A stretch of DNA of 49,241 nt from IMG/VR virus record IMGVR_UViG_2721755711_000006; one strand, 5' to 3'. Of the stretch, positions 18,001 through 24,000 are shown one piece after another. This DNA is from a virus. Lineage: Duplodnaviria; Heunggongvirae; Uroviricota; Caudoviricetes. How positions within the stretch are numbered: position 1 is the first letter of the stretch; each line of letters begins with the position of its first letter. A program made the position numbers.

Positions 18001-21000
18001 TTTACGCGAATACGGGCATACATTTTTCCGTCCGGGCTGGCTTTAAGTACCCTGACACGCTCACGCACCAGTTTCAGGGGGATCCCCTTCACCTGGTTAT
18101 CACCAGCCACAGTATTCTGCGCGACCTGCCGTGTGGCGACAGAGACAACCTTTGCCGCCACACGGTTCATCGCCCATGCGCTGGCCTGTGGCACCATACG
18201 GGTATCAAGGATGTCCAGATTACGGATGGCGTTTTCAAGACCTTTCATAATATCGCCCCGTACTGATATCACCCCGGGAACTGTCACACCGTTGCAGGCG
18301 GATATAACAGCATCCCCTGTCGTCCGGAGTAATGCGATCCACCCGAAAAAGATCCCCACCAACCTCCAGCGTATCCAGACGGCGCAGTCCCGTAATATCT
18401 GCTGTTTTCACAAACAAAGACGGTGAAGAATCTTCAAACCGTACTCCTCCGGCAACGAACGAAATTTTTTCAGGATCATCAAAAACACCCCTGAGTGTTT
18501 TTCCTTCAAGCTGACCGGACGTAATTACCGCCGTAATCCCCATATGACAAAGAATGACCTCGTCAGCCATGGCGACGGCGGCATCAAACGGATTATCGAA
18601 ATCTGCCACCTTTCCCCCACATTCAACACATTTTCACGAGGCCACTTTCTGCCATGCTGGCTGCCACCACAGCAGATACACGAAACACTTCTCCCGGACG
18701 TACAAATGCCACGGGGTTATCCCGTGTGGCGTGGAGTGCATTGACATGTAACATCACCACAGCTTTGACCATGACCATATCCACAGAATTTCGGTTCTCA
18801 CTCTCCCCACGTTCGGATCGTGTTTCGTTTTTTTGTTGTGGTTCTTCATCATCCTTATACAGGCCGTCTGAACCATCACTTAATTCTTCTTCCCACTCCG
18901 CCAGACGTTGTTCAAGATCAGCTTTAGAGCCTGAAATATCGGCATCGCGCCCGAGTACTGCCGCCAGCTCCTGAAGACGCGCTGTTATTTCTTCTTTTGT
19001 CATCACATCTCTCCTGTGCGATAAAGAAAAAGGCGGGAATATCCCGCCTGACCTTATTTCACCTGAACCACCACAAATGCGTCCGGATCCGGCAACACCA
19101 TCAACGGCGCAGACTGCGTCATGGTATATTCGCACCCCGGGTCCCCCACCTCTAACCAGTGTTTCGGATAACGAATTGCAGAGGTGATCCCTTCACTCAG
19201 CGCCTGGTTATCCTGGATTGCGCCATAACAACGGACACCCTCCACCTGAGTGTTTCCAAGAATCAGTGTGCCTTCCGGCAGATAACGCTGCTCATCCCCG
19301 TTTTCATCAACATACGTTGTTTTCGCCACCATGATGGCCAGATCACCGTAATAACCTTTAAAAGAAACCACGGAACCCAGATCTTTCAGCGCGGTTTCCA
19401 GTTCAGATTTTGAGCCACGGCGGGTATCCAGTTTTTCACGAAACAGCTTAAAACCGTTCAGCATACGCCAGACAGTACCGTCCATAATCGCAATATTGAT
19501 GGTACCGGAAGCAAAATCGCAGTACGCATCCAGATCATGCGTCGGATCAAAGGTGTCAGCATTCTGTTTTGACCATTCGCGTCCCCCTGCCTGCGTAATG
19601 TTATTGGCGGCAGAACGTCCAAAATCCACTTCCACCGTCTCAAACTGTTCACCGCTCATGGTGTACTTACCCTGCAGAACAGCGCTGACCGCCTGCATTT
19701 CTTCCACCTGCACAATCGCCTGCTCTTCCTGTTTCAGGTTGTCAGTCAGAATACGCAGGCGACGGTAGGCCGGGTCATTAAGACGGGCCGGATCTTCCCC
19801 CGGAAGACGCTCCACCGCCTGCTGATAATCCAGCCGGTGTTTTGGTTTAACATAGCCGGGGCGTAACACGCGGGTTTCACCACCACGACTGCGCAGTACC
19901 TTACCTGACACAACCGGAGACACATATGCCGCAACCGGTGTTTTTCCGGTGATTTTATCCAGCATCACTTCCTGAGTATGGAAAGTGACCGTACGACGAA
20001 AAAACAGCTCCAGAAACAGCGCACGGAATTTCACTTTCTGCTCGGTGTAGCCGAGCAACTGACGCGTGGTAAATAACCCCATAATTGACTTTCCTTTAAA
20101 AACACAAACGGGCCGCATCACGACCCGTTTTTTTCAGTTAATCACTTCACCATCAGGCGTGGCTGATGGCACTTCCCACAAACGCGTTGGCTTTTTTCAC
20201 CGCATCCACCGAATCCGGCCAGACCAGCGATTCGGTGGCAAACGTACCGCTTTTGTAGTACGTCAGTACGGGCTCGGTCCCGGCCAGCGCCAGTGCCAGC
20301 ACCCCCACAGCCGTTCCGGCTTTCTGACCATCCCATGCCACCAGTTTTCCGCTGGCGTCATCCAGCATCAGTGGCGTCAGTGAAGGCGTGGCAACACTGA
20401 TACCACTGGTACCTGTTGCGGTATACACCGGATCGCTTCCGGCAAAAATGCGCCCGTCCGCGCGCTTTTCTGTGGTGGTTTTAATCATTTTCTCAGTCTC
20501 CTGATTTATCTGAATCACGGATCCCCGCTTACGGCATACTCATCAGCAGTTCTTCTTCCCCGTTCCCGGCAGTTCCGCCACCGGAAACGGCACTGGCGGC
20601 ATGCTGTGCCATGAAGCGCTCAAAAAGTGTTACCTGTGACGGTTGCGATACTGATGGCGCAGCTGCCAGCAGTGTTTTCGCCTGCTCCACTGTCATTCCC
20701 GGCTGTTCGGCCAGCGCCTGTGCCAGTTTTTCGCGTCCTTTTGCTTCCGGCAACGCAATAATTTGATCGCCGGTACTTGCCGTACCGGTTGCCGGTGCCG
20801 CTGCCAGTAGCATTTTCGCCTGTTCCACAGTCATTCCCGGCTGTTCAGCCAGCGCCTGTGCGAGTTGTTCACGCCCTTTTGCTTCCGGAAGTGCCATAAT
20901 CTGCTCGCCGGTACTTGCCGCACCGGCAATCGGTGCCGCTGCCAGTAACGTTTTCGCCTGCTCCACCGTCATTCCCGGCTGTTCAGCCAGCGTCCGTGCC

Positions 21001-24000
21001 AGTTGTTCACGTCCTTTTGCTTCCGGAAGTGCCACAATCTGATCGCCTGTGCTGTCAGTACCGGCAACCGGTGCTGCCGCCAGTAATGTTTTTGCCTGCT
21101 CAACTGACATTCCCTGCTGACCTGCCAGCATCTGCGCCAGTTTTTCGCGTCCTTTCGCCTCCTGACAATTCAGGATCCCCATCACGCGCTGATTTTCCTG
21201 GGACACCGCTTCAGCAACGGTGAGATTTTTTGTTGTCATCGTATTCTCCTGTGTAACAGAGTCGTTCAGAGCAGAAACCATTACATCAACGGCATCTGCA
21301 GCATTAATCAGTTGATCAGCCAGGCCTGTATCAATGCCTGCCTGACCGTCATAAACGGCAGCCTCGGTATTCATCACCACCGCTGAACTCAGCCCCGTAT
21401 AAAGTGCCACCTTGTCGACAAACATCCGGCGGGCCTCATCAATACGGCGCTGAAAATCCGCACGCACACCTGTCGGCAACGCCTGAATACTGTTGCCGTC
21501 AACCTTGTGCTGCCCGGAGTAAATCAGCGTGATATCCACGCCTTCCTGTGCCAGTTGTTTCTCGTAACTGGTGTGCGCCATCATCACACCAATCGAACCA
21601 ATTTTTGCCGTCTGCGTGACCAGCCGACGCGTACAGGCCGCCGCCAGCAACATGGCGGCTGAACAGGCCATGTCATTACACAGCGCCCACACGGGCTTCT
21701 GTTCCCGCAGACGGTAAATCATGTCAGCACAGTCAAACGCCCCGGCAGCCTGACCGCCCGGACTGTCGATATCCAGTAAAATGCCGCGTACATCCGGGTC
21801 GTTCACCGCTGACTTAAGACGGGCAGTCAGACCGTCATAACCGGTCATACCGGAATATGGCCGCAGGGTGCCCATTTTATGTACCAGCGTGCCGCTCACC
21901 GGCAGAATGGCAATACCATTTTTCACCTGGTAACTCTTTACCGGACGCGGACCACCAGTCATATAATCGGTAACCGCCAGCTGCATACCATCGGCATCAA
22001 GCTGAACGGCCTGCTGCGGAACGGCAAGGCTGCCCGCCCCAATTTCCTTACCCAGTGCGCAAAAGAAAACCCGCGCATAGGCGGGTTCCAGTAAAAGCGG
22101 CTCATTAAATGCCATCGCGGCAATATGTGATAAATTACAGCGCATCGCCTTTTTCTCCCGTTGTCTGTCGGATCTGCTGTTGAAACGCGTCCTTTATCCA
22201 GACCGGACGCGGAAGACCGGCAGCCTGTCGCTCCTGAGTTTCCCGTAGCTGCTGGCGGAAAATCTCCTGATAGTCATCCCCCATCAGGGCCAGCTCTTTC
22301 TCGTATGTACTCAGGCCGCCTTCAATGCGCATCACCGCTTCCTGCACTTCCTTAAGGCCATCAATCGCCATACGACCGGCACCAATCCACTCGGCACGGC
22401 ACCACCCGGAACGAGCCTCCCAGAATGAGAAACGGGATTTCGGCGGACGGATCACACCACGAATAAGGGCTTCCTCCAGCCAGCAGGCAAACATCTGTGA
22501 CGCCAGGCGACTGGCCACAAATTTTCGTTTTCCCATAAAATACCGCCACGACTCATTGGCGGATGCCCTGGCACTGGAATAACTGACCTGTGAATAATCC
22601 CGGGAAAGCTGCTCATACGACACACCCAGTCCGGCAGCAATGTAACGTAACAGCGCCTTTTCCAGTTCAGAAAAACCATTATCCGCATTCTGGGCTGTCT
22701 GCAGATTCAGTGAATCTCCCGGGTAAAGATGCGGAATACGGACCCCGCCCAGTTTTACCGTATTGGTGGCGTAATAACGCGCGTAGCCTTTCATGATGGT
22801 GTTCAGGGGATTTTTACCTCCATCTCCCACCCCGGCGATATATTCAAACGCTTTTTCCGAATCCAGTGTGGATTCAATCGTGGCGGCATACATGGCGCGA
22901 ACCACCGCCGACTGCAGTTGCGTGGCCTGCAGTGTGTCGAGCATCTTGAGACGCTCCATTACAGAATAAAACTGGTTGGCCCCGCGGGTCTGCCCGTCTT
23001 CCTGTGGCTGAAACACATGGATCATTCCCGGTCGTCCGGAAGGCAGTGTTGCCGTAATTCGTGTCCATTTACTGACACCGTAGCCGGGCCAGTCATCATC
23101 CTGAACATGGTAGGCCAGCGCTTTTCCGTGTCGGTTTATTTCCACCCCGGCACGCATAAAACGATCGCCGGTACCATAACCGGGTGTACTGACACGCTTC
23201 GGGCTGATGGTTTTGAATTTCGTCCGGAATAATGACGTGGATTCCGCATCCCATACGGGCTGGACAAAAATTTCACCGTTAAACGTATGGACCCCCACCC
23301 CTTCACGAATGAATTCGGTAAACGAACGACGTCCTTCCACATCCATCGTACCAAACACCGGATCGCAGTATTCCATCCACGCAGCCTCAACATCTTCAAT
23401 AAAAGCATGTGAATCTGCTTCCGACATCCCCAGCCAGCGCCAGTTGGGACGGTAACTCAGACGAAACATGTGCCCGACAATATGATCCTTATGAATTTCC
23501 ACTGCATTCGATGCAATACCGTTGTTACGGACCAGATCATCCGCGCGGGCGTTACCCAGATGAATGGAAGGTAAGAGCGCCACGTCGGCACTTTCCGGTG
23601 CAGGCAGCCATTCTGCCATTTGCCCACCGAACCCGGAACCACCACCAGAATATCCCATGCTTTGCCGTAAAGGCTGCCCATGAATATCCACCAGTTCCCC
23701 GTTCACAGCCCCACTCCTGCCGGGCCACGACGCCGTCCGGATACACCCAGCGCACTTTCCAGCTCTTCAATATACTGACGCAGTTCACCAATTGTCGCCC
23801 GCGAATACTGAACCTGACGCCCGTCCTTGCTGACGGAAACCACAGCACGTCCGATCATCAGTTCATGTAACGCCCGGCGGGCATCGCATAGCATTTCATG
23901 CGTATAAATCATCACTTATCCTCCACTCAGAGCAGCCGCGATTTCTTCAATAGTCATTTCATCGTCGTCCTGTTCATCTCTTCTGGCGCGGGCCAGTGCA

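Follow-up and report, generated by a model that had tools for sequence, protein, structure and literature searches.

This analysis concerns a tandem repeat in a head gene of IMG/VR record IMGVR_UViG_2721755711_000006, a Caudoviricetes virus whose 49,241 nucleotides, read as one strand, are referred to here as the window. The gene (20529..22145, minus strand) encodes 538 aa plus a stop and was assigned, from the list of open reading frames (ORFs), Pfam, and PHROG, as a prohead protease-scaffold gene of the lambda C/phage 21 gp5 type. Its first ∼295 residues (21261..22145, minus strand) form the SppA-like S49 protease part, and the repeat occupies the scaffold-encoding 3′ part, within a lambdoid prophage with a head module of the phage 21 type. 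Tandem Repeats Finder reported one array at 20662-21162 with a period of 138, 3.6 copies, 84% matches, no indels, and a score of 659, and a self-repeat search returned 234-nt copies at an exact spacing of 138 nt. Translation of the minus-strand ORF resolves the array into four in-frame units of 46 aa (138 bp) spanning 20640-21191, and a hidden Markov model (HMM) of the 36-residue unit core matches the window protein four separate times, as against once for lambda (L003) and three times for phage 21. A plus-strand ORF at 20915-21223 (102 aa) was rejected as a by-product of the repeat, the coding evidence for the minus strand being overwhelming.

An earlier note on this DNA had described a fourfold, in-frame repeat of 138 bp (46 aa) within the C protein, in its Nu3-like C-terminal part, which is what Tandem Repeats Finder, translation, and the HMM all return. 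The range given there was 20600-21160; the true limits are 20640-21191, ∼30 nt past its upper limit, and the minus strand was left unstated. The note had credited lambda C/Nu3 with a single such segment, in agreement with the one HMM match. Its description of the array as an amplification is right as to the four units but not as to the starting point: the nearest named relative, phage 21, has three, so the step is from three to four and not from a single copy to a fourfold one.

The units, all on the minus strand, are R1 (21054..21191, aa 319-364, QRVMGILNCQEAKGREKLAQMLAGQQGMSVEQAKTLLAAAPVAGTD), R2 (20916..21053, aa 365-410), R3 (20778..20915, aa 411-456), and R4 (20640..20777, aa 457-502), followed by a single-copy C-terminal tail (20532..20639, minus strand, aa 503-538, SQVTLFERFMAQH...EEELLMSMP). 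A rough consensus of the unit is STGDQIxALPEAKGREQLAQALAEQPGMTVEQAKTLLAAAPxxGxA, and R1 opens with QRVMGILNCQ instead. At the nucleotide level, R2 and R3 are 87.7% identical, R3 and R4 77.5%, and R2 and R4 76%, while R1 is a divergent copy with 61-68% identity to R2-R4; among R2-R4 the protein identity is 80-83%. Pfam matches within the repeat (Peptidase_C23, T2SSK, HU, and HTH_15) were set aside as spurious or, at best, as a generic helix-turn-helix resemblance. Those to Peptidase_C23 (26.2 bits against a cutoff of 25) and T2SSK (24.0 bits against 24.2) fall within aa 309-375 and 431-475 and resemble spurious matches to Ala-rich helices.

Upstream of the array, a Shine-Dalgarno-like AGGAG (21246..21250, minus strand), read from the sequence, lies 6 nt before an internal ATG at 21239-21237 (M303, MTTKNLTVAEAVSQENQRVMGIL). 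This ATG is at the position where gene 6 of phage 21 is annotated to begin, and it opens a putative nested, in-frame scaffold gene (20529..21239, minus strand), the analogue of Nu3 and phage 21 gp6. The inferred 236-aa scaffold would consist of a 16-aa leader, the four units (184 aa, 78%), and a 36-aa tail. All of the multi-unit relatives that were examined keep AGGAG or GGAGG at equal spacing and an ATG 14-16 codons ahead of unit 1. Based on this conservation, the gene probably gives two products, a 538-aa protease and a 236-aa scaffold translated from the internal start.

Nei-Gojobori estimates between units gave a synonymous divergence (dS) of 0.26-1.2 and, in the 36-residue core, a ratio of nonsynonymous to synonymous divergence (dN/dS) of 0.09-0.26. 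Among orthologous four-unit genes, dN/dS was 0.13-0.20 in the repeat region as compared to 0.08-0.15 in the protease part. The high dS between units and the low dN/dS of the core argue that the unit duplications are old and that purifying selection on the protein maintains every copy. These values also bear on the suggestion that the repeats act in cis as DNA or RNA "boxes", in regulation, recombination, or translational control, with the peptide repeat as a by-product. Such a role would fit the phage 21 record, which lists its equivalent "Tri boxes" as DNA repeat_region features of unknown function, but the heavy synonymous divergence (dS up to 1.2) beside a conserved peptide, the retention of the peptide motif by distant relatives in unrelated DNA, and a scan of 20000-22300 that found no promoter-like site make it very improbable.

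The four-unit gene is not confined to the window. When the gene was compared by megablast with 5,426 complete E. coli genomes, 104 of them had a full-length 1617-bp match, and the repeat region with its flanks matched 105 of the same 5,426 (∼2%); essentially all of 60 matches sampled across the ranking of these 105 genomes cover the full four-unit length. In the protein database, 538-aa versions are present in E. coli, E. marmotae, E. albertii, Citrobacter freundii, C. portucalensis, and Salmonella, with two clusters of 470 and 826 members, and one IMG/VR locus (L085) encodes a protein that is 100% identical over the 538-aa match. The four-unit gene is thus a genuine, common, and already catalogued allele. 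The earlier note had proposed comparison with homologous prophages, and in that comparison the four-unit gene recurs across E. coli and other genera, next to relatives with one to five units. It had also worried that the fourfold array might be an assembly artefact, a mis-expanded repeat. Short-read assemblies do break in this region, leaving partial proteins on ∼1 kb contigs and chimeric ORFs, but the 12-39% DNA divergence between copies lets each unit be placed uniquely, the identical 1617-bp architecture recurs in the ∼105 complete E. coli genomes, which come from unrelated studies, and in other genera, and the L085 protein is identical over the 538-aa match. We give the artefact explanation practically no credence.

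Copy number was counted with the core HMM at loci from GTDB species representatives and IMG/VR (n = 145). A single unit is present at 58 loci, which include lambda, Klebsiella, Enterobacter, Kluyvera, Vibrio, Photobacterium, Pseudomonas, and Marinobacter, and another 58 loci have three units, those of the phage 21 type and also loci in Providencia and Trabulsiella. Four units, the window type, were counted at 26 loci, two units at two (L108 and L109), and five at one (L092). A profile search of 1.84 billion protein representatives found 146 with a match, which comprise 135 with one unit, seven with two, and four with three; the search profile was 135 positions long and not ∼46, as three full-length lambda-type sequences dominated it, and copies were therefore recounted with the core HMM. 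Full-length protein searches added a window-type protein with five units (P0122, 578 aa), two window-type proteins with three (P0123 and P0161, 492 aa), and a phage 21-type protein with two (P0232, 451 aa), and the complete genome of PapRG-04-4 carries a three-unit allele. Four Bradyrhizobium sequences (P0081, P0082, P0098, and P0074) are stand-alone proteins of 160-200 aa with two modules (...RIMGTPEAAGRE... and ...ILALPEAKGRE...), a duplication that is independent and far outside the enterobacterial phages. None of 50,697 phage records matched the head module of the window from portal to coat (19054-23706) at ≥80% DNA identity, and the nearest, of the phage 21/PhiR12 type, reached ∼73-75%; the module is known as prophage only, despite its presence in ∼2% of complete E. 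coli genomes.

The variants suggest how the number of units changes. All of them retain R1, R4, and the tail that R4 adjoins, and the internal units are gained or lost in steps of 46 and occasionally 43 codons. The two-unit L108 and the five-unit L092, which has three identical internal units, are sister alleles with private substitutions in common. Because the gains and losses are internal and of exact step size, and because L108 and L092 are sister alleles, unit number evidently changes through unequal homologous recombination between units. In P0160, P0162, and P0152, lineage-specific substitutions are common to all units of one protein and are not shared across proteins, which shows gene conversion or concerted evolution. 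Unit 1 is a positional orthologue across lineages, and R1 of the window is 81% identical in its core to unit 1 of phage 21 (Tri1).

The expectation in the earlier note that such a repeat would be a hotspot for recombination and assembly errors is supported by the two-, three-, and five-unit variants, by the many partial proteins on short contigs, and by the chimeric ORFs. Many relatives (P0001, P0002, P0005, P0010, and others) come from contigs only 0.5-3 kb long and bear the label "S49 family peptidase, partial"; short-read assemblies evidently break inside the repeat. In P0163, baseplate-V-like sequence follows the C protein after unit 3, and in P0231 and P0236 the fusion is to tail-fibre-like sequence; an internal duplication of 156 aa brings P0164 to six units, and in P0167, a lambda C, the protease domain is duplicated. 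These chimeric and duplicated ORFs could be misassemblies or real recombinants.

Alleles with different numbers of units were compared together with their neighboring head genes: L108 with two units, L002 with three, the window and L085 with four, and L092 with five. Across these alleles, the adjoining major capsid proteins are 98.5-100% identical, the portals at least 99.4%, and the decoration proteins at least 98.3%, and no co-variation of the coat protein with unit number was seen among them. Near-identical coats thus stand beside two to five units, and copy number varies independently of coat sequence. An altered capsid size had been suggested for the array, and extra units might in principle affect packaging capacity or the geometry of the capsid (its size or T-number). 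Scaffold proteins help set capsid size in other systems, for example in P4 Sid/P2, and the window scaffold is 36 aa longer than the scaffolds of phage 21 and lambda. Nevertheless, heads with two to five units share the near-identical coats just described, the window coat is 83% identical to gp7 of phage 21, and the predicted four-unit prophage contigs (42-47.6 kb) are in the same size range as one-unit lambda (48.5 kb). The suggestion of altered capsid size consequently finds no support here, and we regard an effect on geometry or capacity as improbable.

What the units may do is suggested by their conservation and predicted structure. In a comparison of 49 distinct relatives with a single copy, which range from Enterobacteriaceae to Vibrio, Pseudomonas, and Marinobacter, the module is by far the best-conserved block of the scaffold region, with the leader and tail variable except for a weak "ALDRLM" motif. 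The near-invariant positions of the unit core are E-A-x-G-R and G-M-[ST]-V-[ED]-x-A, and the window units carry the conserved module R-[IV]-M-G-I-L-x-C-x-E-A-x-G-R-E ... G-M-[ST]-V-E-x-A ... A-A-P. AlphaFold2, with a 36-sequence alignment, modeled the protein at a mean predicted local distance difference test score (pLDDT) of 65.5. In this model each unit is a short helical element (pLDDT 70-82), the linkers between them have pLDDT <50 (residues 360-365, 404-410, 453-455, and 499-503), and the tail contains two short helices. Predicted by itself, a single unit folds as helix 3-23, a loop (PGMT), and helix 30-39, with a core pLDDT of ∼80. Searches of solved structures, whether the query was the full protein or the scaffold part alone, aligned SppA to the protease domain only and gave no match to the repeats.

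In the scaffolds of P22, SPP1, phi29, and 80alpha, coat binding occurs via helix-turn-helix or other helical motifs (PMC11565965), and lambda Nu3 interacts with itself and with C, B, and E (PMC3224144). Drawing on sequence conservation, the structural model, and analogy with these systems, we infer that the units are multivalent scaffold interaction modules, and the explanation that we consider probable for the locus as a whole is a nested scaffold in which four selected, recombining modules act as multivalent beads. The protease gene would yield the 538-aa protease and, via the internal ribosome-binding site and ATG, the 236-aa scaffold. Unequal recombination alters the number of units, gene conversion partly homogenizes the internal ones, and purifying selection keeps all four. 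Each module would form a small helix-loop-helix bead, held by a flexible linker, and provide a single contact to coat, another scaffold, or portal, such that more copies would give greater multivalency to the scaffold, and to the protease with the same C-terminus, during normal T=7 procapsid assembly. The protease would later cleave the scaffold chain and the fragments would exit. To our knowledge, the interaction domains of lambda Nu3 have never been mapped. A more specific proposal, that the module is this unmapped domain of lambda-type scaffolds, directed at coat and/or portal, and that its copy number tunes valency and the rate or fidelity of T=7 assembly, is offered tentatively and may well prove wrong.

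The main rival holds that the units are mostly filler, a flexible and cleavable mass that determines how long or how voluminous the scaffold core is, without specific binding, with copy number near-neutral in a tolerated range and the single tail doing the binding. The coexistence of two- to five-unit alleles with 98.5-100% identical coats and near-identical portal and decoration proteins would be expected under this rival, as would linkers that are predicted to be disordered. Further, the annotated scaffolds of lambda (Nu3, L003, 201 aa) and phage 21 (gp6, L001, 200 aa) are nearly equal in length, with one unit and three units, respectively, which hints at a constraint on length and not on unit number. 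A spacer, however, would not be expected to contain the most conserved part of the scaffold over very wide distances. Core dN/dS is 0.09-0.26 in every copy, and the four-unit state is nearly fixed among complete genomes of the window lineage. We therefore judge filler to be unlikely, though less so than the other alternatives.

Several points nonetheless weigh against the multivalent-bead explanation. The extreme C-terminus is the coat-binding element in several other scaffolds, and the single-copy tail could instead serve that function here. Since variants with two to five units occur beside the same coat, valency may matter little. The confidence of the AlphaFold2 models is only moderate (mean pLDDT of 65 and 71), and both the use of the internal start and a function for four units are deduced from conservation. 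In the phage collection, no isolated plaque-forming phage carries this head module at ≥80% identity.

If copy number does tune scaffold valency in this way, the two- to five-unit alleles beside near-identical coat, portal, and decoration genes would amount to a ready-made valency experiment on capsid assembly. One short module emerges from the survey as the conserved core of the scaffold, and nature varies it from one to five copies with the coat untouched. The copy-number series gives inexpensive genetic access to scaffold function in the classic lambda/phage 21 system, though not a new kind of system. For annotation, the repeat is a known weak spot of short-read assembly, giving rise to partial and chimeric "S49 peptidase" entries, and the four-unit gene, as a genuine common allele, should not be "corrected".

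The assignment of the protease part and the gene context are as follows. Peptidase_S49 (PF01343) matches aa 146-290 of the 538-aa protein at 115 bits (cutoff 24.9), phrog_53 "head maturation protease" matches the protein at E = 4e-218, and the Bacillus subtilis SppA structures 3rst and 4kwb align with aa 76-289 at E = 6e-17. S162 ("MACSAAM") is placed opposite the Ser of SppA "MAASGGY", which we take to be the catalytic residue, and hardly varies across the 36-sequence alignment. H213-K214 is invariant in the family; the pairwise alignment with B. subtilis SppA puts no Lys opposite the Lys of "IKSG". Among named phages, the closest protein is phage 21 gp5 (66% aa identity), then Gifsy-1, then lambda C (54%). 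The neighbors, assigned from the ORF list and the annotation of a near-identical prophage in E. coli C311, are the portal gene directly upstream (22135..23706, minus strand), the head decoration gene directly downstream (20153..20518, minus strand), and the major capsid protein gene (19054..20121, minus strand), whose true start is probably near 20082. The order portal, C, decoration, and coat lies within a complete lambdoid prophage, and the major capsid protein has 83% aa identity to phage 21 gp7 and 58% to lambda E. A GC-rich hairpin with an 11-bp stem and a T-run after it (20106-20130, minus strand) lies between the decoration and major capsid genes and forms a terminator-like site within the late operon.

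Three known systems place the locus in context, one of which is P22. The P22 scaffold is recycled and not proteolysed. Its coat-binding helix-turn-helix at the C-terminus of gp8 is likewise a small helical element in a flexible scaffold of a T=7 phage, which makes it a mechanistic analogy without homology (PMC11565965). No sequence or fold similarity of the module to the solved C-terminal domain of P22 gp8 was found. The P22 motif is single and at the extreme C-terminus, whereas the window protein has its module in several internal copies ahead of a separate tail.

Lambda gpC/gpNu3 is a closer likeness. There, too, a nested protease-scaffold pair is located between the portal (B) and decoration (D) genes, and the conserved module (SRIMGILNCEEAHGREEQARVLAETPGMTVKTARRILAAAP) and a related tail are present; lambda-type relatives have the tail pattern "ALDRLM ... 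LLNTPV", which is related to the tail of the window protein. Unlike the window gene, lambda has one module, which comes after a ∼60-aa low-complexity leader, and its annotated Nu3 start is farther upstream, inside the protease domain, where the window protein has Ile at the aligned Met.

The closest system is phage 21, which shares the gene order, the S49 domain (72% aa identity within the first 300 residues), the position of the internal ribosome-binding site and ATG, modules that begin straight after a 14-16-aa leader, and a homologous tail that ends in LMxMP. At the equivalent place, the phage 21 record M81255 annotates a nested gene 6, a putative ribosome-binding site, and repeat_regions named "Tri1 box", "Tri box", and "Tri3 box", which are labelled "function unknown; putative" and which upon translation are three homologous units. 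Nothing on the Tri boxes of phage 21, or on repeat variation among Nu3-like scaffolds, was found in the literature library that was searched. In a phage 21 genome record (OL657228.1), features named "transcription factor CII (x2)" lie under the scaffold repeats and are probably an automated mis-annotation of helix-loop-helix units. The differences are that phage 21 has three units with a mutual identity of ∼45-55% and a 200-aa gp6, whereas the window gene has four units and a 236-aa scaffold, and that its last three units, at 80-83% identity, show signs of continuing homogenization and copy-number change. Tandem units in a Nu3-like scaffold were therefore already on record for phage 21, and the array in the window is a four-unit version of them.

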